Source: Thermoplasmata archaeon (lineage in GTDB: Archaea; Thermoplasmatota; Thermoplasmata; Thermoplasmatales; Thermoplasmataceae). From it: a DNA stretch of 64,000 bases. The notes beneath the pieces are model-generated. The model saw only the letters and a program-made list of their open reading frames with translations. It ran no database searches and was not told the DNA's origin. The stretch lies in assembly GCA_021818715.1 (NCBI GenBank), contig JAKATN010000003.1, positions 31,093 to 95,092 on the forward strand, written 5' to 3'. The first letter of the stretch is position 1. Every line of letters begins with the position of its first letter. The position numbers were made by a program, and so were the translations under genes. Of the stretch, positions 1,475 to 14,855 are shown piece by piece.

Positions 1475-2464
1475 TTGAATGTGAAAGCCGCAATCCTGTC
1501 TGAACCAAAGGGGATGGATTTTCTGCAGATCAGGGATGTCCAGGTTGAGCCAAAACGAGAAGGGCATCTGAAAATAAAGGTGAAACTTGCTGGACTGAAC
1601 CCTGTCGATGTAAACCTTATGTCTGGGAATATCAGGTATAACATATGGCCAGTTCCGCACATTCCAGGTGTGGAATTGTTTGGGGAGCTCATGGATAACG
1701 GAAAAAAGCTTCACAAGGGGGACAGGGTTATTGTTTTTCCGAGGCTGTTTGACGGAGTCTGCCGGTATTGCCTGACCGGAAATGAGGAGGTTTGCGAAAA
1801 TGGAGGGCTTTTTGGCGTTTCAACTAACGGGGCATACAGGGAGTTTGCAAACGTTGAAGAAAAATACATTTTCAAAGTACCGGATTCTATCTCTGATGAG
1901 ACGGCTGTAAGCCTCCCGGTGGGTGGCCTCACCGCTATGCATGCCCTGAACGTTGCCGGTGCTTCACATGGAAAGAGAGTGCTGGTTTATGGTGCCTCGG
2001 GGAATACCGGAATATTTTCAGTCATGATTTCCAGCCTGATCGGCGCGGACGTCCACGCGGTATCCAGGAAGCCATGGATTGCTGATTTTGGTGCCAGACA
2101 GGTATTTGAACCTGGCAAAATCCCGTCAGGATACCTGTACGATGTGGTGGTCAACCCTCTCGGTTCGCTTGGATTCGAGGAATCCCTTGATCATCTTGAC
2201 AAAAACGGTAAGTTCGTAACCTTCGGTACGCTTGGAGGGAACCGGATAGAGGCCGATATTGGAAAGATATATACCAGACAGCTAGGTATACTGGGCAGCA
2301 CTGGCGGGAGCAGGAGGGAACTATCTGATCTCCTCGTTCTGCTTGCCGGGTATAAGAAGAATATCCCCGTCGAGAAAACATTCTCTCTCGATCAAATCAG
2401 TGATGCGCTAAAGTCATTCCAGGGCAGGAATAATGGAAGAATCATCATAAAGGTGGGTTCATAG
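1475..2464 (+). CDS. Zn-dependent alcohol dehydrogenase / quinone oxidoreductase family (MDR superfamily)
   Basis: It has a GroES-like N-terminus (VKAAIL...GHLKIKVKLAGLNPVD) and a Rossmann motif VLVYGASGNTG. The true start may be the GTG at 1481. Confidence 0.75.
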   Translation: MNVKAAILSEPKGMDFLQIRDVQVEPKREGHLKIKVKLAGLNPVDVNLMSGNIRYNIWPVPHIPGVELFGELMDNGKKLHKGDRVIVFPRLFDGVCRYCLTGNEEVCENGGLFGVSTNGAYREFANVEEKYIFKVPDSISDETAVSLPVGGLTAMHALNVAGASHGKRVLVYGASGNTGIFSVMISSLIGADVHAVSRKPWIADFGARQVFEPGKIPSGYLYDVVVNPLGSLGFEESLDHLDKNGKFVTFGTLGGNRIEADIGKIYTRQLGILGSTGGSRRELSDLLVLLAGYKKNIPVEKTFSLDQISDALKSFQGRNNGRIIIKVGS

Positions 2465-3100
2465 GCTTTTAAGGAGCGCTATCTTCTCCTCTATCACGCC
2501 TGAGAAAATATAAGAACCCGAGACGAGGATGTCGGCCCCGGCATCCGCAGCCATTTTTCCAGTCACATCGTTTATTCCTCCGTCGATTTCCAGTAACGTC
2601 TTAAGTCCATGATCCTTAATGTATTTCCTCGCCTCTACCAGTTTTCCCAGCGATTCCTGTATGAACTTCTGCCCAGAAAATCCTGGATGTACGGACATCA
2701 CGAGAAGTATCTCTGCGTTTTCCAGAAACGGGAAGGACCGTTCTACAGGGGTTTCAGGGTTGACAACAACGCCGTACTTCCCTCCCTCCCCCTGAATGGT
2801 CTTCAGCAATTCGCCCGTTACAATCGGGGACTCCACATGTATCAGAAGGGTGTCCGAGCCTGATTCCATGAATCTCCTGTAATACCTGTCCGGTCGATCT
2901 ATCATTAGGTGGGTTTCAAGCTTCATCCCTGTGTTCTTCCTTATGGCCCTTATGAAATCGAAACCGATCGTGAGGTTGGGAACAAAGTGACCATCCATCA
3001 CATCAAGGTGAAGGGAATATGAGCCCGCAGAATCGCACCTTGCGACCTGATCCTTGAGATTTCCCATATCTGCAGAGATTATTGATGGCGACACTAGCAC
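2459..3100 (-). CDS. rpe: Ribulose-phosphate 3-epimerase
   Basis: Motifs SIISADMGNL, LHLDVMDGHFVPNLTIG, MSVHPGFSGQKF and EIDGGIN are canonical Rpe motifs. Confidence 0.9.
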   Translation of the reverse strand: MLVSPSIISADMGNLKDQVARCDSAGSYSLHLDVMDGHFVPNLTIGFDFIRAIRKNTGMKLETHLMIDRPDRYYRRFMESGSDTLLIHVESPIVTGELLKTIQGEGGKYGVVVNPETPVERSFPFLENAEILLVMSVHPGFSGQKFIQESLGKLVEARKYIKDHGLKTLLEIDGGINDVTGKMAADAGADILVSGSYIFSGVIEEKIALLKSL

Positions 3101-3224
3101 AGACGCCTATGTAAATTCAAGATAAATACTTCCTTCTGAATTCTGGGGCAATACCCATGGCCTGAATGCTTCGACCAGAAATGGAAGGAAAAAAGTTATA
3201 TCGTGGAGTTGGTTCGATTTTGGC

Positions 3225-3734
3225 ATGGGCAGTAAGAGTGGCAACAGGGAGTCGACTATTTCAGGCAAACCGGGAAAGGAGCTTGCTATATCCATAATGG
3301 AAAGGATCAGGAGGGTGATAGAGAGAATGAATGTTGCCAACGATGAGATCATCAAAGTTTCGCGGCTCACCAACATCAGGGAGATAGTGCTCAATATCAA
3401 GGTCGAATATGATAACATAATCAGCATGATAGAGGATACCATTCGGTCTGACAGCATAGACCTTGCCTCTCCAGAGGAGTACATAAAAGGGACGCGGGCC
3501 ATTGATCATCTGCTCCAGAACATCCCTGAACCGGATCCGAACGATCTCAAGAGTGTGCTGCTCAATGCTGTGAAGGAAAACAAGGAATTGCAGCACATTC
3601 TGAGTCTTATGGCAAGCGAGTACAGGGATAGGTCTGTGAGCAGGGTTGTCGGTTCAATCCTGGAACACCTTGACAATGCGAGGAACAAACTTGAAACGCT
3701 TTATGAAGATCTCATAAACAGGGATTACTGGTAA
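3225..3734 (+). CDS. Hypothetical protein, predicted helical
   Basis: The 169-aa ORF has protein-like composition. The competing minus-strand ORF 3107..3502 is low-complexity (S/L/I/M-rich). Confidence 0.4.
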   Translation: MGSKSGNRESTISGKPGKELAISIMERIRRVIERMNVANDEIIKVSRLTNIREIVLNIKVEYDNIISMIEDTIRSDSIDLASPEEYIKGTRAIDHLLQNIPEPDPNDLKSVLLNAVKENKELQHILSLMASEYRDRSVSRVVGSILEHLDNARNKLETLYEDLINRDYW

Positions 3735-3771
3735 AGATACAGTTCAAATTGTAAATGAACATTGAGCCCAG

Positions 3772-5334
3772 ATGAGATCAAAACCGGAAAATCCGGTAAG
3801 AGGTGTTCTGAGAAGCGAGATCAGGGTGCTCTTAAAGCTATATCCGGTTTTTCGCAGGTACGTGAAGGACCGAAAGCGGATCAAGAGGGAAAAAGAACAC
3901 GTTTACGACCCGAGGATAGAGTACAACGGCCTGAGGGCAATGAACGCATTCGTGGAACTCGGCCCCACCTTCATAAAGCTGGGCCAGATGCTTTCTGCCA
4001 GGCCAGATCTCCTTCCGAATGAATATGTTTCATCCTTCCAGAAGCTTCAGGACGATGTCCCTGCAGCAGATTTTGCGCTTGTGAAGCCAATTCTTGAGCG
4101 CAACCTGGGCGAACTTGGGAAGATCTTTGAGGAATTTGATCAGGACGCGGTGTCAGGTGCTTCCCTTGGACAGGTATATACCGCCGTCTACAGGGGAAGG
4201 AAGGTGGCAGTCAAGGTCAATAGGCCATACGTCAAGCAGAGGCTGAAAAAAGACCTGGTTGTTCTGAAGAGGCTGGTAAAACATGCTAAGAACCGGGTGG
4301 ACAACTTCCTTTACATCTCCCTTGAAAACGTGATCAACGACTTCAGTTCAAGGATCTTTGACGAACTTGACTACAGAAAGGAAAAATCCAACATGGAAAA
4401 GATCAGGAAGAATATATCCAGGAGGGAAAACGTGATAATTCCGGAAATTGTGGAAGAACTATCCGGGGAGGAAGTCCTGGTGATGCAGCATGTGGATGGT
4501 GTGAAGATCACCGATGTGAGGAAACTAAGGGAGATGGGATATGATACTGCCAGGCTCGCGTTCTCCCTTGATCTAATGTTCATAAGAATGGTGCTGAAGG
4601 ATGACATCTTCCATGGCGATCCGCATCCCGGCAATATCTCGGTTTCGGCAGACGGGAAACTGATACTGTACGATTTCGGGATGGTCGGCACGCTTGACGA
4701 GAACACCAGGGAGAACCTCATCGCGTTGTATGTCGGTATGATAACATCGGATGCGGACGTGATCATAGATGCCCTTGTTTCCCTCAATGCACTTTCTCCT
4801 GCTGCCAATCGTGGAGTTATACGAAGAAGCATAGAATTGTCAATCGCAAACCTGAGGGGAATTAACCCGGAGGAGAGCGAAATCAGGGAACTCTTCGCGA
4901 TAGCAAATGAAGTGATCTTCGAGTTCCCATTCCGGCTTCCCAGGGCGCTTGTCCTTTACATGAGAATGGCAAGCCTGCTCGAAGGAATATGCAGGGATCT
5001 GGACAGAGATTTCAGGTTCCTCAGGGTGCTGAGGCAGATCCTCTATAATGAAGGGGTCTTGAACAAGTTCTACCGATCTCAACTTATTAAATTCGCTGCC
5101 AAATCGATCATAAGCATAGAGAAGGGACTGGATGCGTTGCCCCTCATCAAACGGGCTCTAGAAGAAAAAGATGCACCATTGAACGGGAAAAGAAGCGTGA
5201 AGGTTGAAATCTCTATATTCCTTGGTTTCGCCCTGCTTTCTCTGGCTTTGTTCTACAGCTATTTTCCATTTTATTCACTCATCCTCATACTCGTAGTTGC
5301 TGTGGCATTTGCTGCAACCGTACTGAAAAAATGA
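3772..5334 (+). CDS. ABC1/UbiB (AarF) atypical kinase family protein with a C-terminal membrane anchor
   Basis: FIKLGQMLSARPDLLPNEYVSSFQKLQDDVP is the ABC1 family signature. It also has a kinase-like VAVKV lysine, HGDPHPGNI, a DFG motif, and a hydrophobic C-terminus. Confidence 0.85.
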   Translation: MRSKPENPVRGVLRSEIRVLLKLYPVFRRYVKDRKRIKREKEHVYDPRIEYNGLRAMNAFVELGPTFIKLGQMLSARPDLLPNEYVSSFQKLQDDVPAADFALVKPILERNLGELGKIFEEFDQDAVSGASLGQVYTAVYRGRKVAVKVNRPYVKQRLKKDLVVLKRLVKHAKNRVDNFLYISLENVINDFSSRIFDELDYRKEKSNMEKIRKNISRRENVIIPEIVEELSGEEVLVMQHVDGVKITDVRKLREMGYDTARLAFSLDLMFIRMVLKDDIFHGDPHPGNISVSADGKLILYDFGMVGTLDENTRENLIALYVGMITSDADVIIDALVSLNALSPAANRGVIRRSIELSIANLRGINPEESEIRELFAIANEVIFEFPFRLPRALVLYMRMASLLEGICRDLDRDFRFLRVLRQILYNEGVLNKFYRSQLIKFAAKSIISIEKGLDALPLIKRALEEKDAPLNGKRSVKVEISIFLGFALLSLALFYSYFPFYSLILILVVAVAFAATVLKK

Positions 5335-5380
5335 TCCGGGGGCAATCAAAAGCGCAGGATTTTTTCCTTTCGCCCAGTAA

Positions 5381-5761
5381 CTATTCCACCTTGACGGCTC
5401 TGAGCCCCTTGGCGGGTATGGTAAGGGTCAGGACACCGTTCTGGTACTTTGCCGTAATTTCAGCGCCCTGATCCACATCATAAGGAAGGCGTATCCTCTT
5501 GCTGATCTTTTCCGGTCTCTGATCAATGAATGTCGTGCCTGCCTCTTCTTTTTTACGGGACGCATTGATCAACACTGCATTATTGTCGAGCCGCACATCA
5601 ATTTCCTTCTTCTCAAATCCAGGCATGTCGGCTTCGATGATAATGTCAGTGCCTGATTCGTACATTGTGATAGGTGGGTATATAAAGCTCAGTATCTCCT
5701 TTCCCCTGTCTCCTATGTTCTTCAGCATTTCCTGGGCATAGAACTTCAGTGGACTGTACAT
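5381..5761 (-). CDS. hsp20: Small heat-shock protein, Hsp20/alpha-crystallin family
   Basis: The alpha-crystallin domain is visible in IIIEADMPGFEKKEIDVRL...RIRLPYDVD...AKYQNGVLTLTIP. Confidence 0.9.
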   Translation of the reverse strand: MYSPLKFYAQEMLKNIGDRGKEILSFIYPPITMYESGTDIIIEADMPGFEKKEIDVRLDNNAVLINASRKKEEAGTTFIDQRPEKISKRIRLPYDVDQGAEITAKYQNGVLTLTIPAKGLRAVKVE

Positions 5762-11091: not shown

Positions 11092-11290
11092 TACAAGTAA
11101 ATTGTATAACTATTTATTAATGATACCCGAAGGGACGATGAGACATAAATCACTGACGCTTAAGCAAATTCCACAAACACGCTGCTTCTGTTGCTTTCCA
11201 GTAATGGCCAAGTGGAGTGCCTCCGCCTTTCACGGGACTGCTGTTCCGTCCTGATCGTGATCTTTTCGTTAATCTTGGATAAATCTCCCT

Positions 11291-11572
11291 ATGAAAGGAT
11301 TAGTACAGGAAGAGATTCTGTACTGGATTCAATCAGATTCTCAGTACCTCGATAACAGATTGGAAGGAGTATATGAGGAGTTAAAAAGGTTTGATCAATG
11401 TTGTAGGGGAACTGGGGAAAAGATTGAAAGTTTTTCCACGATGTCAACAGAATTTCTAAGAGGCCATGAATGCATCTTTGAAGCGATTTTGGCAGATTTG
11501 ATAGCTCTAGGATTTTCGGGTTGCACGGATGGAGGACTTTTGTCCTGGTGCCATTCTAAGAAAAATATTTAA
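11291..11572 (+). CDS. Small Cys-containing protein, first clear ORF of the E1-like/protease cassette (possible substrate or partner)
   Basis: The 93-aa ORF lies 22 nt upstream of the E1-like gene on the same strand. Its C-terminal segment is GFSGCTDGGLLSWCHSKKNI. I recognise no family. Confidence 0.4.
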   Translation: MKGLVQEEILYWIQSDSQYLDNRLEGVYEELKRFDQCCRGTGEKIESFSTMSTEFLRGHECIFEAILADLIALGFSGCTDGGLLSWCHSKKNI

Positions 11573-11594
11573 AGCTCTGAAGTTACCTGCGTAA

Positions 11595-12734
11595 ATGTCA
11601 GAAGCTATGGATTTAGGCCTTTCAATTCCTAAAATTCGGGTCCCCTACTATAGCCCAACGCTGGCTAAAGATGGAACAATAAGGATGGGGACCCAGTACC
11701 CACTCGAAGTGGAGATTAATGACCCAAGAAATGAGGACATTTGGGAGATCATGGAATTGATTGATGGAAAGAGAAGCGTTCTTCAGATAATTGAGGAGCT
11801 TCAAGGAAAAATTGAAAACCCTAGGGAGTTGGTTCTCGGACTAATAGAAAGCCTTACCAAAAGGGGGATTATTTATTACGCAAATTCCAAAGCGGATATC
11901 GAAGGATTGGATCCGGTGGAAGTGGAAAGATATGCCAGGAACTCATATTACTTTTCCTGGATACTTCCTACAGATAAAGAGCTTAATTATGAGCCGCAAT
12001 TGAAACTCAAGAACGCGAGAGTGACAATCGTGGGGATGGGTGGTATTGGATCATCTGTTGCTGTGAGTCTTGCGGCAACCGGAGTTGGGCATATACATTT
12101 AGTGGACTTCGACATCGTTGAAATATCCAATTTGAATAGACAAATACTGTACTCGGGAGATGACATTGGAAAATCAAAAGTCAAACGTGCATCTGAAAAA
12201 CTGTCCAGGATCAACTCTCTCATTGACGTTACATATGAAGAGCGCAAAGTGAATGGAGTAAATGATTTTGCGGAGCTTATGAAGAACGCAGACGTTCTTG
12301 TTCTTGGTGCTGACAAACCCGTGGGAGTCACCTCCTGGTGCAATGAAGCTGCATTGGAAGTTGGCACGCCATGGATTACAGGAGGCTATTTTGGGCCAAA
12401 ATACCTGTGCGAAGGGTACATACCGCACCAAACAGGGTGCACAGAATGCTATAAGATCAGATACATGAATGAAGTAAATGCCTCAATAAAATTTCCCTAT
12501 GGAGATTATGATTATAATGCATCAATAGCTCCAACTTCGATAATTTCTGCCCAACTAATTGCTCTGGACGTGATTCATTATATAGTGGGATTTAAGACAC
12601 AATTTTTCGGTAAAAGATATATCGGAAATGCCCTCTCAATAGACCTGTCTGTTTTTCAGGATATAGATAGAGTGCCTTCATGCCCCAAATGTGGCGAATC
12701 TGTAACTTATGCTGTAAACAAGAAACGGGACTAG
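11595..12734 (+). CDS. ThiF/MoeB/HesA (E1-like) adenylyltransferase with an N-terminal PqqD/RRE-like peptide-binding domain
   Basis: Residues about 40-95 (NEDIWEIMELIDGKRSVLQIIEELQGKIENPRELVLGLIESLTKRGII) fit the PqqD/RRE pattern. Residues about 140-379 carry VTIVGMGGIGSSVA (Rossmann), LVDFDIVEISNLNRQ, and the CxxC...CxxC zinc motif (CTEC...CPKC). Confidence 0.85.
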   Translation: MSEAMDLGLSIPKIRVPYYSPTLAKDGTIRMGTQYPLEVEINDPRNEDIWEIMELIDGKRSVLQIIEELQGKIENPRELVLGLIESLTKRGIIYYANSKADIEGLDPVEVERYARNSYYFSWILPTDKELNYEPQLKLKNARVTIVGMGGIGSSVAVSLAATGVGHIHLVDFDIVEISNLNRQILYSGDDIGKSKVKRASEKLSRINSLIDVTYEERKVNGVNDFAELMKNADVLVLGADKPVGVTSWCNEAALEVGTPWITGGYFGPKYLCEGYIPHQTGCTECYKIRYMNEVNASIKFPYGDYDYNASIAPTSIISAQLIALDVIHYIVGFKTQFFGKRYIGNALSIDLSVFQDIDRVPSCPKCGESVTYAVNKKRD

Positions 12735-12738
12735 TTCA

Positions 12739-13956
12739 GTGGATCAGATAGAACCCAACAGCTGCCTGAGATTTCACAAGCTTGAGGTCAGGAGGGAAAA
12801 AATAGGTCTCGTTGTTGGGAGAAAAGAAACTGGGGAATTTGTCTCCCTTGACAGTCTGGGTGAGGAAACTCTCAGATTATTGATGGATGGAGCGACAATA
12901 TCAGAGGTAGAGTCGGTTCTAAAATCAAGGGGGAGAGATATCAATGTGGCAAGTTTCGCCTCTAATATCATAGACCTTGGATTTGCGAGCGTTTCAGATT
13001 CTCCTCATAAAAATCCCAATGGGCTGACCATAGAGTCGGAAAACGATCTCGGGCGTTATGGGTTACCGTTCCTCGTTGTGATCATTTGCTGGATTATATT
13101 CCTGTCAGTGGCATTTTTTAGAACTGCATTGCACCCTTCTGCTCTGTACGCTGCTGTGGATTCTCTCTGGAAGTTGAATTTCATGGTCTTTTACGTGTTG
13201 ATTTTTGGGATCTTTTTACTGGATGGGGCGATCCATGAAAGTTTTCATTATCTCTCTGCGAAGCTTTTTGGAGTGCCTGCCAAGATTGGGTTAAGCGTCA
13301 GGTTATTTGAGCCGGTTTTTCAGACTGAACTTCATGCGCTCTGGAGCGTGAATAGAAAAAAACGTTACATAGTTCTATTTGCAGGATTGATGTGGGAATC
13401 ATTAGCACTTTCCTTGTTCCTGCTCGTGAAGAGTGCGTTCCAGCTTCCTCAACCGTTAAGCCTGTTTCTCAGTGGCTACATCTTTCTTAACATTATGGTG
13501 ATTATTTCTGAGTTTGCGTTCTTCACCAAAACAGATGTATATTTCATACTGGTGACGGCATTAAACTGCGGTAACTTAAGAGACGACTCAATTAATTATT
13601 TGAAATATCTTTGGAGACGTGCTTTTGGAAAATTATCTGGAAAATATAGGTCTTCACCTGCCACAGACCCTTTAAAAGTACTTCCAGCATGGGAGAAGAA
13701 GACCGTGAAATGGTACACATGGTTTATGATTGTTGGCTCACTGGCTTTCCTGATATTCAGCTATCTGATTTCCTTTTGGGGAGTCGTGAGTGTAATCGCT
13801 TTAACGGTTGCCCAATTCATGAATGGCCTATTGGCTTCAAATATCCTGGAGTTTGGGCTTGGGGCAGCAGGCTTAGGAATATTGGGTTTTAACGTTCTTT
13901 TCCCTGTTTATTTTTACATTAGAAAATGGAGAAAAACAAATTCCTTGATAAATTAG
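12739..13956 (+). CDS. Polytopic membrane HExxH zinc metalloprotease (M50/S2P-like) with an N-terminal PqqD/RRE-like domain
   Basis: The N-terminus FVSLDSLGEETLRLLMDGATISEVESVLKSRGRDINVASFASNIIDLGFA fits the PqqD pattern. HESFH at 13234..13248 sits at a TM helix, followed by at least 6 hydrophobic helices. The GTG start lies 4 nt after the E1-like stop. Confidence 0.7.
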   Translation: MDQIEPNSCLRFHKLEVRREKIGLVVGRKETGEFVSLDSLGEETLRLLMDGATISEVESVLKSRGRDINVASFASNIIDLGFASVSDSPHKNPNGLTIESENDLGRYGLPFLVVIICWIIFLSVAFFRTALHPSALYAAVDSLWKLNFMVFYVLIFGIFLLDGAIHESFHYLSAKLFGVPAKIGLSVRLFEPVFQTELHALWSVNRKKRYIVLFAGLMWESLALSLFLLVKSAFQLPQPLSLFLSGYIFLNIMVIISEFAFFTKTDVYFILVTALNCGNLRDDSINYLKYLWRRAFGKLSGKYRSSPATDPLKVLPAWEKKTVKWYTWFMIVGSLAFLIFSYLISFWGVVSVIALTVAQFMNGLLASNILEFGLGAAGLGILGFNVLFPVYFYIRKWRKTNSLIN

Positions 13957-14201
13957 CAGCAAATCCTATCATTAAGAAATTTGAATTTGTGTAAAGTACA
14001 CCCAAAAAAAAAATTAAGGTTAGACCCAAAAGTGTTCAAAATTATCTGGGGCAATCTATATTTAGTGGTGGTCCCGAAAAAATTGTGGCTTCGAATTTCT
14101 CGAGGTTCCTTATTTTAATCTCTTCCAGATATATCACCTCCACGACTTTATGCGACAATATATATATAAATTTGGCTCTTCCCACTTTCATGTTGGTAAT
14201 T

Positions 14202-14345
14202 TTATCTAATGTTTGGATATATTATTTCATGGACGAATGCCACCAGATACCTAGATTCCTCCTTCACCTTTCCATTATCACGGTAAGATCTGACTTCATA
14301 CTGGTAGGTCCTGCCGTTCTTAACCATCCTCCGGATATAGGTCAA
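14202..14345 (-). pseudogene. Truncated N-terminal fragment of a transposase-like gene
   Basis: The minus strand reads LTYIRRMVKNGRTYQYEVRSYRDNGKVKEESRYLVAF..*, about 41-47 aa. The K-N-G-R/K-x-Y-x-Y...R-x-x-G-K motif is one I associate (from memory) with N-termini of IS1634/IS4-type archaeal transposases. Confidence 0.45.
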
Positions 14346-14433
14346 TGTAGTGATAATAACACTACAACATACATAGATCGTTTCTCATAAAATCCCGCAA
14401 AAATTCTGCATCAAACAAGGAATGCCGTGTTAA

Positions 14434-14724
14434 GAAAGGGTAAAGTCAGGTTGGAGAGAGAAGAGAAAGAACGGAAAGGAACATTACAAGCTTTATGGAT
14501 CAAAGCGTGTCAGTGGAAAGCCAGCGACAAAATACATCTGATACCTCTGGAAGGATATGCTTCCATACTTGGAGAGGCTCCTTGGCACAGAGATATCGGA
14601 CGCCGGGATAGTGGATATACTGAGGGAGAATGGGATAGACTGTGACATTTCACCCATAACTAAGATGGTGCTGGAGAATGACAGGAAACTGAAATGCGGA
14701 TCGTATACTGCACTCACCTATTGA
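14434..14724 (+). pseudogene. Second transposase-like N-terminal fragment with an in-frame stop
   Basis: One frame reads ERVKSGWREKRKNGKEHYKLYGSKRVSGKPATKYI*YLWKDMLPYLERLLGTEISDAGIVDILRENGIDC...TALTY*. The in-frame TGA is at 14539..14541. It carries the same KNGK-x-Y...GKP motif as the fragment at 14202..14345, in inverted orientation. Confidence 0.45.
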
Positions 14725-14855
14725 GATGCTACGACTGCGACAATAAACTTAAGGCCTGCAGGACCAGAACAGGGCGTGTGACATCCGTTGAGTACGGATC
14801 GTTCGAGGCAGTCTATCGCGTCAGGAAATGATACACGCCTATTTCTGCCATAGGG

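Follow-up and report, generated by a model that had tools for sequence, protein, structure and literature searches.

The window analysed here is a 64,000-nucleotide (nt) stretch of contig JAKATN010000003.1 (positions 31,093 to 95,092, forward strand) in the assembly GCA_021818715.1 of a Thermoplasmata archaeon affiliated with the Thermoplasmataceae. We read one locus in this window as a minimal three-gene cassette for a peptide that is synthesized on ribosomes and then modified post-translationally (RiPP) and assign a probability of roughly seven in ten to this interpretation. The three genes span about 2.6 kb and encode a ThiF-like adenylyltransferase (A), a polytopic membrane metalloprotease (B), and a short precursor peptide. 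Both enzymes carry an N-terminal domain resembling a RiPP recognition element (RRE). A preliminary description, prepared from the DNA letters, had reported genes A and B as adjacent open reading frames (ORFs) on the same strand, separated by 4 nt. Both were found as described (Table 1), together with all motifs quoted for them: GMGGIGS, DFDIVEISNLNRQ, and CTEC...CPKC in A; and HESFH in B. The identical 4-nt gap occurs in the homologous pairs of two other contigs, L001 and L002. That description contained no substrate; a 31-codon gene located downstream of B on the opposite strand would fill this role.

The ThiF-like adenylyltransferase

Gene A had been described as an RRE-like segment continuing into a complete ThiF/MoeB-type adenylation domain, and both parts were recovered. 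The Pfam ThiF profile (PF00899) matched A with an E value of 9.4e-47, residues 132–364 covering profile positions 12–237 of 238. The overall similarities of the single sequence to proteins of solved structure were as follows: 7.8e-36 (MccB); 6.4e-27 (PaaA); 1.1e-19 (MoeB); and 1e-18 to 1e-19 (MoeB/ThiF). A profile built from 11 full-length relatives gave the same order, with values of 6e-62 for MccB, 6e-55 for PaaA, and 1e-43 for ThiF/MoeB. The analogy to the RRE-fused E1-like enzymes MccB and PaaA, drawn in the preliminary description, thus agrees with the closest solved relatives of A. The catalytic residues and both CxxC pairs are kept: G147, G149, G152, D173, N179, R182, Q183, K195, D240, C282, C285, C363, and C366 are invariant among the 11 relatives, and C363 and C366 remain conserved at 90% or more after addition of four proteins in which A is fused to B.

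The NCBIfam models for ThiF, MoeB, MoeZ, and UbaA matched A with E values of 1e-25 to 1e-34, yet none came near its curated cut-off; the UbaA model (NF047750), for instance, scored 89.9 bits against a cut-off of 450. With MccB and PaaA also being closer than ThiF and MoeB, A is no ordinary UbaA or MoeB orthologue.

The Pfam PqqD profile matched the N-terminal domain of A below threshold (residues 50–93; E value 0.028 with the whole protein and 0.004 with this domain alone). The top PDB match of the N-terminal 120 aa alone was PaaA (E value 0.015; residues 21–116 versus 16–109). A family profile of this region, about 110 residues long, matched the peptide-binding domain of PaaA (5ff5; 6–105) with an E value of 8.4e-9 and, more weakly, LynD, MusD, and PqqD. 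The PaaA alignment of A extends across the N-terminal domain, whereas the solved ThiF/MoeB chains start at profile position ~95–110. Judged from sequence, A is an intact RRE-fused ThiF-like adenylyltransferase of the ribosomal-peptide group and no orthologue of MoeB, ThiF, or UbaA. Outside the Thermoplasmatota lineage, its full-length relatives reach no more than about 35% identity.

The RRE-fused membrane protease

An exhaustive HMMER scan of 1.84 billion cluster representatives retrieved 1100 B-family sequences with E ≤ 1e-3, of which 570 had E ≤ 1e-10; almost all are 390–440 aa long and align end to end. Other searches returned 2 (word-indexed protein search) and 11 relatives (alignment query). 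H166, E167, H170, R188, R209, G216, and D266 are invariant in 123 representatives of the family.

The AlphaFold model of B computed from this 123-sequence alignment has a mean predicted local distance difference test score (pLDDT) of 92.7 and a predicted template modelling score of 0.89. Its N-terminus consists of strands 9–12, 16–20, 23–28, and 33–37, helices 39–49, 54–63, and 70–79, and strand 83–86. The best Foldseek match in the PDB was the lasso peptide RRE TfuB1 in complex with its leader (6jx3_B; probability 1.00, target-normalised TM score 0.75, root mean square deviation 2.5 Å over 85 columns). Next were TbiB1 (0.99), PqqD (0.87), and the RRE domains of SuiB, SkfB, McbB, and CteB. The earlier suggestion that B, like A, begins with an RRE is in line with this fold.

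Residues 108–400 form helical membrane segments in the model, with HESFH located in helix 148–176 and followed by a beta-hairpin (182–197). Sequences of PDB entries were matched by the B-family profile in the following order: TbiB1 (0.0015); site-2 protease (S2P) MJ0392 (0.023); TfuB1 (0.028); and RseP (0.03). The only further matches were to a PqqD protein and, with an E value of 1.6, to an entry named 'Bft'. It is the HESFH stretch of B that aligns to the HExxH helices of MJ0392 and RseP. Among 81 relatives of B, 39 matched Pfam Peptidase_M50 at E ≤ 0.01 (best value 3.4e-8) and 17 matched PqqD. The only NCBIfam match of B was daptide_HExxH (NF041824; 5.9e-7, residues 123–299), with 29 bits against an equivalog cut-off of 300. 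One homologue is named 'site-2 protease family protein' in RefSeq, and relatives are named 'putative peptide zinc metalloprotease protein' in JGI annotations. The proposed M50/S2P-like character of B therefore holds for the invariant motif and its position in a transmembrane helix, while the relationship is distant and the Pfam M50 score of B itself lies below the cut-off. According to the model, B is an RRE fused to a divergent M50/site-2-type metalloprotease. Lys and Arg residues, read against the model helices, are concentrated in the N-terminal domain and in loops 177–205 and 259–316; this distribution puts the RRE and D266, together with the motif-bearing end of the HExxH helix, on the predicted cytoplasmic side.

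More distant relatives of B, with 25% identity, occur on contigs L015 (4490–10195) and L016 (111–5910). They have no ThiF neighbour and are followed by a TPR protein of ~650 aa and a MacB/FtsX-type permease.

The putative precursor peptide gene

Six-frame comparison of the window with the flanks of the homologous pair in contig L011 revealed one significant block, located downstream of B (65% over 23 aa, E value 4e-7). It belongs to a minus-strand ORF of 31 aa, MIYLEEIKIRNLEKFEATIFSGPPLNIDCPR, which ends in ...DCPR and is read from a GTG inside GGAGGTG. The same GTG is the first available start in L011 and in L025, a sister contig 98.5% identical to the window; the corresponding peptides are MKCLDEIKIRKLEKIEATMITGYSGSGVPR (L011) and MILLEEIKIRKLEKFEATMTTYYEGCIPR (L025). 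The full window peptide, IYLEEIKIRNLEKFEATIFSGPPLNIDCPR, combines a leader (IKIRNLEKFEAT / EEIKIRNLEKFEAT) with a conserved N-terminal I-K-I-R-x-L-E-K-F-E-A-T and a short variable C-terminal core (IFSGPPLNIDCPR). In the window as in L025 and L011, the GTG is preceded at a distance of 26–30 nt by a TATA-like element, which suggests a leaderless or near-leaderless mRNA. The T10 run behind the stop codon is conserved in L025, and L011 has a T6 run. No Rfam family and no tRNA was found in the conserved block. Since conservation is at the amino-acid level and spans an archaeal cassette of ~41% GC and actinobacterial loci of visibly far higher GC, an RNA or DNA element was excluded as its cause.

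Across the peptide family the consensus reads I-x-I-R-x-L-[D/E]-K-[I/F/L]-E-[T/A]-[T/S], after which come 4–13 residues rich in Gly, Ser, Pro, and Asn, often with Cys. The leader motif I-x-I-R-x-L-[D/E]-K-x-E-[T/A]-T was present in 13 further loci beside an A–B pair or fusion, and two additional occurrences lie at contig ends; for the co-located precursor gene as such, conservation was noted with 16 further loci. When this motif was written as a degenerate DNA pattern, it had one match in the window, with 0.00 expected by chance. Applied to 241 million metagenome records, it gave six hits: one chance match inside a giant protein and five short precursor ORFs (...PIEIRKLDKIETTMNVSNPSGN; ...IEIRKLDKIETSSPSNPSGN; ...IKIRKLDKIETTGGPLPSNPSGS; MEEIEIRKLDKIETTNDCGNSS; and ...IEIRKLDKIETTQISRGTAQ). 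Three of these five directly follow ThiF-B or B, and two lie at contig ends. A 46-residue gene just upstream of ThiF on a Streptomyces chromosome, annotated as 'hypothetical protein', ends in ...EHIEIRLLDKIETIQNKQIDS and contains the same leader motif. Motif peptides also precede both fusion genes examined (L023 and L024) and accompany all six plasmid-borne pairs, with two tandem copies in Streptomyces sp. NBC_00464, whose cores are Cys-rich (AQSCPRCA and AVCHEDVPCS). A motif ORF was thus found next to the pair or fusion in every locus for which flanks were available. Its placement varies: upstream or downstream, on the same strand or convergent. All archaeal cores end in Pro-Arg. No Pfam or NCBIfam model matched the motif peptides, and the plasmid genes are missing from the PLSDB gene tables, which are incomplete.

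The preliminary description had included the stretch 11138–11594, upstream of A, in the interval given for the cassette. Peptide candidates in this stretch are not supported: the putative substrate gene is downstream of B, outside the interval then reported. The upstream ORFs (93 aa, 11291–11572; 44–50 aa, 11102–11355; and 21 aa, 11529–11594) were matched by neither Pfam nor NCBIfam models, and nothing corresponding to them precedes the homologous pair in L001, L002, or L011. The 503-nt spacer in front of A has no substitution relative to L025, so that this comparison is uninformative for these ORFs. No plausible MccA-type tiny ORF ending in Asn was detected upstream of A.

Occurrence of the A–B pair in other genomes

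Genes A and B lie side by side in the window, L025, L001, L002, L011, L012, L008/L009, L017, L021, and L026–L031. The pair in L001, L002, and L011 is 63% (A) and 59% (B) identical to that of the window; the source of L011 is given as 'MAG: Thermoplasmatota archaeon FK_Sedi_B_Bin.205'. Contigs L012–L014 represent an unassigned metagenomic lineage with B 35% identical and an upstream ThiF truncated and ending in CPKC. The Streptomyces chromosomes L008/L009 encode a B homologue 28% identical over 347 residues (E value 2e-29), and L017 and L021 are soil metagenome contigs with ThiF-B. Among 27 actinomycete plasmids holding a B homologue, six were inspected and all six contained the pair. These belong to Streptomyces sp. 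NBC_00464, NBC_00376, and NBC_01650, S. viridifaciens (pKVP1), Actinacidiphila glaucinigra, and Nocardia sp. NBC_00511. RefSeq/GenBank annotates their A genes as 'ThiF family adenylyltransferase' and their B genes as 'hypothetical protein' or 'site-2 protease family protein'. Four proteins (P0219, P0241, P0242, and P0260; 722–859 aa) combine A and then B in a single polypeptide. A conserved-locus search with four close B sequences returned one genome locus and none in metagenomes.

The two genes are therefore neighbours elsewhere as well, wherever this clade of A meets this clade of B, and are fused in at least four metagenomic sequences. The A–B combination is a defined sub-group of two wider module families. 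Of the earlier view that the system is archaeal, one part stands, the pair being real in Thermoplasmatota; it is not peculiar to archaea, most members found are actinobacterial, and the window copy looks horizontally acquired.

Proposed mechanism

All characterised ThiF-like RiPP enzymes adenylate a peptide carboxylate, which is then attacked by an internal nucleophile (PMC12596934; PMC12150305). By analogy, A would grip the leader via its PaaA-like RRE and adenylate a core carboxyl with ATP. The most likely target is the C-terminal alpha-carboxylate, since the family cores have no other carboxyl in common and several of them lack Asp and Glu (e.g. MNVSNPSGN); the invariant Glu of the leader motif would be an alternative. 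A nucleophile would then capture the acyl-adenylate and displace AMP, yielding a cyclised or otherwise C-terminally modified peptide. Candidate nucleophiles are the near-invariant Thr at the leader–core junction, a backbone amide (as proposed for EnfB), and the new N-terminus exposed by cleavage.

Protease B may dock on the same leader via its lasso-B1-like RRE at the cytoplasmic face and cut the leader off at the HExxH...D site near the inner membrane surface. Docking of both enzymes on one leader is plausible, the precursors sharing one conserved leader motif. Release of the product across the membrane may likewise fall to B, in line with the proposal that EpeP both cleaves and exports (PMC10885120). 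Such a role is considered because no transporter is encoded in the minimal clusters; that in L019 continues straight into the genes for acetate kinase and Pta.

Alternative explanations

Several observations weigh against a RiPP-type cassette. The RRE of A is recognised by sequence homology, its single-sequence AlphaFold model having a pLDDT of 32, and the start codon of the precursor gene is inferred from conservation only. The membrane part of B gave no convincing structural match, with no S2P among the top 50 Foldseek PDB matches, and the Pfam M50 profile matched the window protein with an E value of 0.014 and 15.2 bits against a cut-off of 27.2. The distant B homologues beside TPR and MacB/FtsX genes suggest that RRE-HExxH proteases of this family serve other peptide systems too; B is therefore a general module, unspecific to a ThiF pathway. 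The RREs of A and B show no sequence similarity to each other, so that it is assumed that both would recognise the same leader. Cores of the family end in different residues (R, N, S, Q, Y, D, A, G, and V) and have no nucleophile that is conserved in all of them; they therefore do not point to one chemistry. Finally, the window cassette contains no transporter or immunity gene.

The cassette might also be a decaying or silent passenger, that is, an island acquired in a region of insertion sequence (IS) activity whose product is no longer made. Its GC content is 0.414 compared with 0.484 in the surroundings, and GC at third codon positions is 0.40 in A and 0.45 in B, compared with 0.55–0.61 in seven flanking housekeeping genes. 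This difference from the neighbours indicates recent horizontal acquisition, and the cassette appears to be an acquired island in the archaeal genome. Mobile elements are close to its relatives. An IS66-family element is inserted between B and the precursor gene in L025 (3807–5252). Directly upstream of ThiF in L001 (6595–6780) and L011 (~4590–4800) there is a sequence (MEALQVRLYPKEDQKALLEKQFGSCRWVWNHFLEIRTKY, then a frame-shifted continuation) which, judging by its N-terminal motif, looks like what is left of the 5' part of a TnpB/IS605-OrfB gene. Of 3806 positions aligned between the window and L025, 57 differ, 41 of them in B (26 nonsynonymous and 15 synonymous). Against decay, none of the three reading frames is disrupted in the window, L025, or L011, and all catalytic and metal-binding residues are kept. 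A differs from its L025 counterpart at a single, synonymous position in 1140 nt, and the precursor gene retains its leader, promoter-like TATA element, and putative T-run terminator. The differences are also spread very unevenly. They form three clusters (12786–12941, 13060–13191, and 13806–14170) corresponding to the RRE, the first membrane helices, and the C-terminal helices of B, the last cluster running into the precursor gene. In the precursor region, which is 74% identical, the leader is kept and the core replaced (IFSGPPLNIDCPR versus MTTYYEGCIPR). A conserved leader with a hypervariable core is typical of RiPP precursors. The clustered differences suggest recombination tracts or co-diversification of protease and core and resemble these more than decay, which we regard as unlikely.

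A microcin C-type pathway, in which A would produce a nucleotide-linked (N–P) 'Trojan horse' peptide in the manner of MccB and B would be an accessory factor for processing or export, is a distinctly improbable explanation. It would account for MccB being the closest solved relative of the catalytic domain of A, for two bacterial family precursors ending in Asn (...PSGN; L017 and L019), and for the MFS_3 exporter gene that follows archaeal and bacterial A-clade genes without B, as in mccB–mccC. The Asn side chain, however, is essential to the MccB mechanism (PMC11256085; PMC12596934), whereas the window precursor ends in Arg and the other C-termini of the family include, besides N, seven further residues. 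No MccC-, MccD-, MccE-, or MccF-type genes were found in the window cassette, and a leader-plus-core layout with a dedicated leader peptidase is unlike the 7-residue MccA.

That A and B act on a peptide or protein encoded elsewhere, and that the motif peptide is a regulator or an unrelated micro-protein, is very unlikely. In favour of this reading, both the position and the orientation of the small ORF vary. Variable placement of precursor genes is, however, usual in RiPP clusters. The small ORF is the only element besides A and B common to all loci, in two domains of life, and its architecture is that of RiPP precursors: the N-terminal motif is conserved, the C-terminal tail is hypervariable, and the gene is occasionally duplicated in tandem (two copies in L026).

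The preliminary description had considered a ubiquitin-like activation and processing module. In a ubiquitin-like or sulfur-carrier module, A would be a UbaA/MoeB-type E1 for a protein of the small archaeal modifier protein (SAMP), MoaD, or ThiS type and B a processing or deconjugating protease; although A belongs to the E1 superfamily, is matched by the MoeB, ThiF, and UbaA models, and resembles PADLOC Cap2-type E1–E2 models in its Rossmann part, this option is extremely unlikely given the sub-cut-off scores of these models, the PaaA-like N-terminal domain outside the range of solved ThiF/MoeB chains, the lack of rhodanese and E2 domains in A and of a ThiS/MoaD-type (beta-grasp) gene adjoining it, an associated ORF of only 31 aa with a RiPP-style leader and no Gly-Gly end, and the M50-like rather than JAMM character of B. 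A defence system of the CBASS (cyclic oligonucleotide-based antiphage signalling system) type with a Cap2 E1–E2 protein was rejected: PADLOC showed generic E1 similarity only, confined to segment 129–258 of A, and no match for B.

Comparison with known systems

Among characterised systems, PaaA (pantocin A) and MccB (microcin C7) resemble A in combining an N-terminal RRE with an E1/ThiF domain and a structural zinc Cys4 site, and a short precursor gene adjoins these enzymes as in the window. Unlike MccA and PaaP, the window precursor has no C-terminal Asn (MccA) and no internal Glu-Glu-Asn (PaaP), and the partner of A is an RRE-fused membrane metalloprotease instead of MccC/D/E/F or PaaB/PaaC. 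IndF, EnfB, and GrcB agree with the proposed mechanism in acting on leader-plus-core precursors, in modifying them at or near the C-terminus, and in adenylation followed by intramolecular attack with loss of water (PMC12150305; PMC11256085; PMC12596934). The ind cluster is similarly minimal, comprising a precursor, a ThiF-like enzyme, a zinc peptidase, and a transporter. These three systems occur in Bacillota, have conserved Trp- or Cys-containing C-terminal motifs and, where a peptidase is present, employ a soluble M16 enzyme. The family described here, in contrast, has an unconserved core, an RRE-fused intramembrane HExxH peptidase, no transporter, and hosts among Actinomycetota and Thermoplasmatota. 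Bacillota have a 'VEGR' clade in which a C-terminal Arg is obligatory (PMC11256085).

The fusion of an RRE to an intramembrane site-2-type protease is already known from the daptide protein MpaP (10.1101/2023.03.08.531785). Like B, MpaP consists of an N-terminal RRE and a polytopic HExxH membrane protease for leader removal. Daptide clusters, however, encode an oxidative decarboxylase, an aminotransferase, and a methyltransferase, not a ThiF-like enzyme, and no such genes adjoin the window pair. The precursor differs as well, having the motif IxIRxL[D/E]KxE[T/A]T and a variable C-terminus, and B is far from the daptide_HExxH cut-off. EpeP/YydH of epipeptides and TglG/TmoG of pearlins are, like B, membrane-embedded HExxH metalloproteases that process ribosomal peptides (PMC10885120). 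That review does not mention an RRE for these enzymes, and B is only marginally similar to canonical M50 proteins. The lasso B1/E proteins TfuB1 and TbiB1, which are discrete RREs, are the best structural and sequence matches to the N-terminal domain of B. In lasso biosynthesis, the leader peptidase receives the leader from the RRE, and the cleavage site has a conserved Thr close by (PMC10885120). Lasso peptidases, however, are transglutaminase-type cysteine proteases, and no lasso cyclase is encoded at the window locus. The archaeal SAMP/UbaA system differs in its beta-grasp substrate with a Gly-Gly end.

RRE-ThiF enzymes are a growing RiPP group (MccB, PaaA, GrcB, EnfB, and IndF), with 27,400 candidate fusions in bacterial RefSeq genomes (PMC12150305). 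About five reaction types have been worked out for ThiF-like RiPP enzymes, all of them from Proteobacteria or Bacillota (PMC12596934). The preliminary description knew of no archaeal system with this architecture. Our full-text literature searches, with subscription-only papers outside their scope, likewise found none; neither the combination of a ThiF-like RiPP enzyme with a site-2/M50 protease, nor the leader motif, nor any archaeal ThiF-type RiPP system was encountered. Two reviews of ThiF-dependent RiPPs do not mention M50, membranes, or archaea, and a survey of archaeal RiPPs does not mention a ThiF or RRE system (PMC12144867). The module types are therefore known (an MccB/PaaA-like enzyme and a daptide-like RRE-protease), while their combination, the precursor family, and the archaeal occurrence are apparently undescribed.

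As a tentative proposal, held jointly in all its parts at somewhat less than even odds, the cassette may represent an undescribed RiPP family defined by a precursor with an IxIRxL[D/E]KxE[T/A]T leader, an MccB/PaaA-like enzyme, and an RRE-site-2-type protease, the two enzymes being sometimes fused. This family would be common to Actinomycetota, often on large linear plasmids, and Thermoplasmatota. Its ThiF-like enzyme would introduce a C-terminal modification beyond the five known chemistries, e.g. a macrolactone or macrolactam in which the junction Thr or the new N-terminus is joined to the C-terminal carboxylate. The protease would couple leader removal to export, and the system would have been transferred between domains of life, with its core diversifying within strains. 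If true, this would be the first ThiF-dependent RiPP pathway documented in archaea, extending this type of peptide modification to a domain whose RiPP repertoire is barely explored. The parts list of the family is complete and very small: three genes, a leader motif searchable at the DNA level, natural fusions, and natural variation of the core. Among the RefSeq/GenBank records inspected, precursor genes of this kind are unannotated (plasmids) or annotated as 'hypothetical protein' (Streptomyces chromosome), and such clusters may therefore escape annotation-based genome mining.

Sequence features and related loci

Table 1. Positions of cassette features in the window and of motif-containing precursor genes on actinomycete plasmids.
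Feature	Sequence	Position	Strand	Basis or remark
Gene A, RRE-fused ThiF-like adenylyltransferase, MccB/PaaA type	Window	11595..12734	+	ORF, 379 aa, ATG start; Pfam ThiF
N-terminal peptide-binding (RRE-like) domain of A, residues ~21-116	Window	11655..11942	+	PaaA match
ThiF/E1 adenylation domain of A, residues 132-364, with two CxxC pairs	Window	11988..12686	+	PF00899
Gene B, RRE-fused polytopic HExxH membrane metalloprotease	Window	12739..13956	+	ORF, 405 aa, GTG start 4 nt past the A stop
N-terminal RRE domain of B, residues 9-86	Window	12763..12996	+	AlphaFold model, Foldseek
HESFH zinc-binding motif of B (H166, E167, H170), in transmembrane helix	Window	13234..13248	+	Invariant
D266 of B, invariant Asp in R-T-D-x-Y motif	Window	13534..13536	+	Candidate third metal ligand, by analogy with M50
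Putative precursor peptide gene, 31 codons plus stop, MIYLEEIKIRNLEKFEATIFSGPPLNIDCPR	Window	14042..14137	-	Conserved flank block; GTG start
Stretch coding for leader recognition motif, EEIKIRNLEKFEA	Window	14088..14125	-	Degenerate pattern match
TATA-box-like element, TTTATATA	Window	14163..14170	-	~26-30 nt upstream of precursor GTG; putative promoter
T10 run, candidate archaeal terminator	Window	14004..14013	-	28 nt past precursor stop
Precursor gene, first tandem copy	L026	5313-5393
Precursor gene, second tandem copy	L026	5445-5522
Precursor gene	L027	2644-2766
Precursor gene	L028	1510-1626
Precursor gene	L029	1620-1688	-
Precursor gene	L030	4275-4340

The cassette of the window is flanked upstream by a gene for a GINS subunit on the opposite strand and downstream by genes for a TatD-like hydrolase, ribosomal protein S2, and tRNA-splicing endonuclease. 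The stretch separating the precursor gene from the TatD-like gene is unstable: 683 nt of it in the window (14171–14853) are missing in L025. This segment gave no Pfam, Rfam, or repeat signal. Its interpretation as transposase remnants was dropped for want of Pfam support and terminal repeats.

The nearest relatives in the A clade without B were identified on the archaeal contigs L003 and L004 (31–32% identity), where ThiF is followed by an MFS_3 exporter and an AAA_16/TPR regulator. A conserved 28-residue peptide is encoded upstream (L003, 6174–6260, MNSKQKVRIRVQPLTKAQTSPVPTPVRR; L004, 7753–7839, MNTNENVRIRLQPLTKAQSEPVPSPVRR), with a related leader-like motif and an Arg-Arg end. These loci probably represent a sister RiPP family with export in place of proteolysis. 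ThiF followed by MFS_3 was also found on Salmonella enterica contigs with plasmid-type genes (ParD/ParE and KfrA; L005–L007, 5882–5935) and on a Logan contig (L010, 5879–5935), whose ThiF protein P0011 is assigned by NCBI to an alphaproteobacterial metagenome-assembled genome. The short upstream ORFs of these bacterial loci end in Gly (MKFTKHATSNAKLALVG in L005–L007; MNIFSFKASSSSLSDEG in L010) and each is followed by a hairpin. They are neither MccA-like, having no terminal Asn, nor members of the IxIRxL[D/E]KxE[T/A]T motif family.

Directly upstream of the Streptomyces cassette in L008, at 2005–5723, lies a separate small-peptide cluster. It comprises a Cys-rich 56-aa ORF (...AAGCGGCETFRKSSGGQIYFVKCCWTPSCVLRCP), MauE, a 191-aa CSGC (thioredoxin-like) protein, an ABC transporter, and an S26 signal peptidase.

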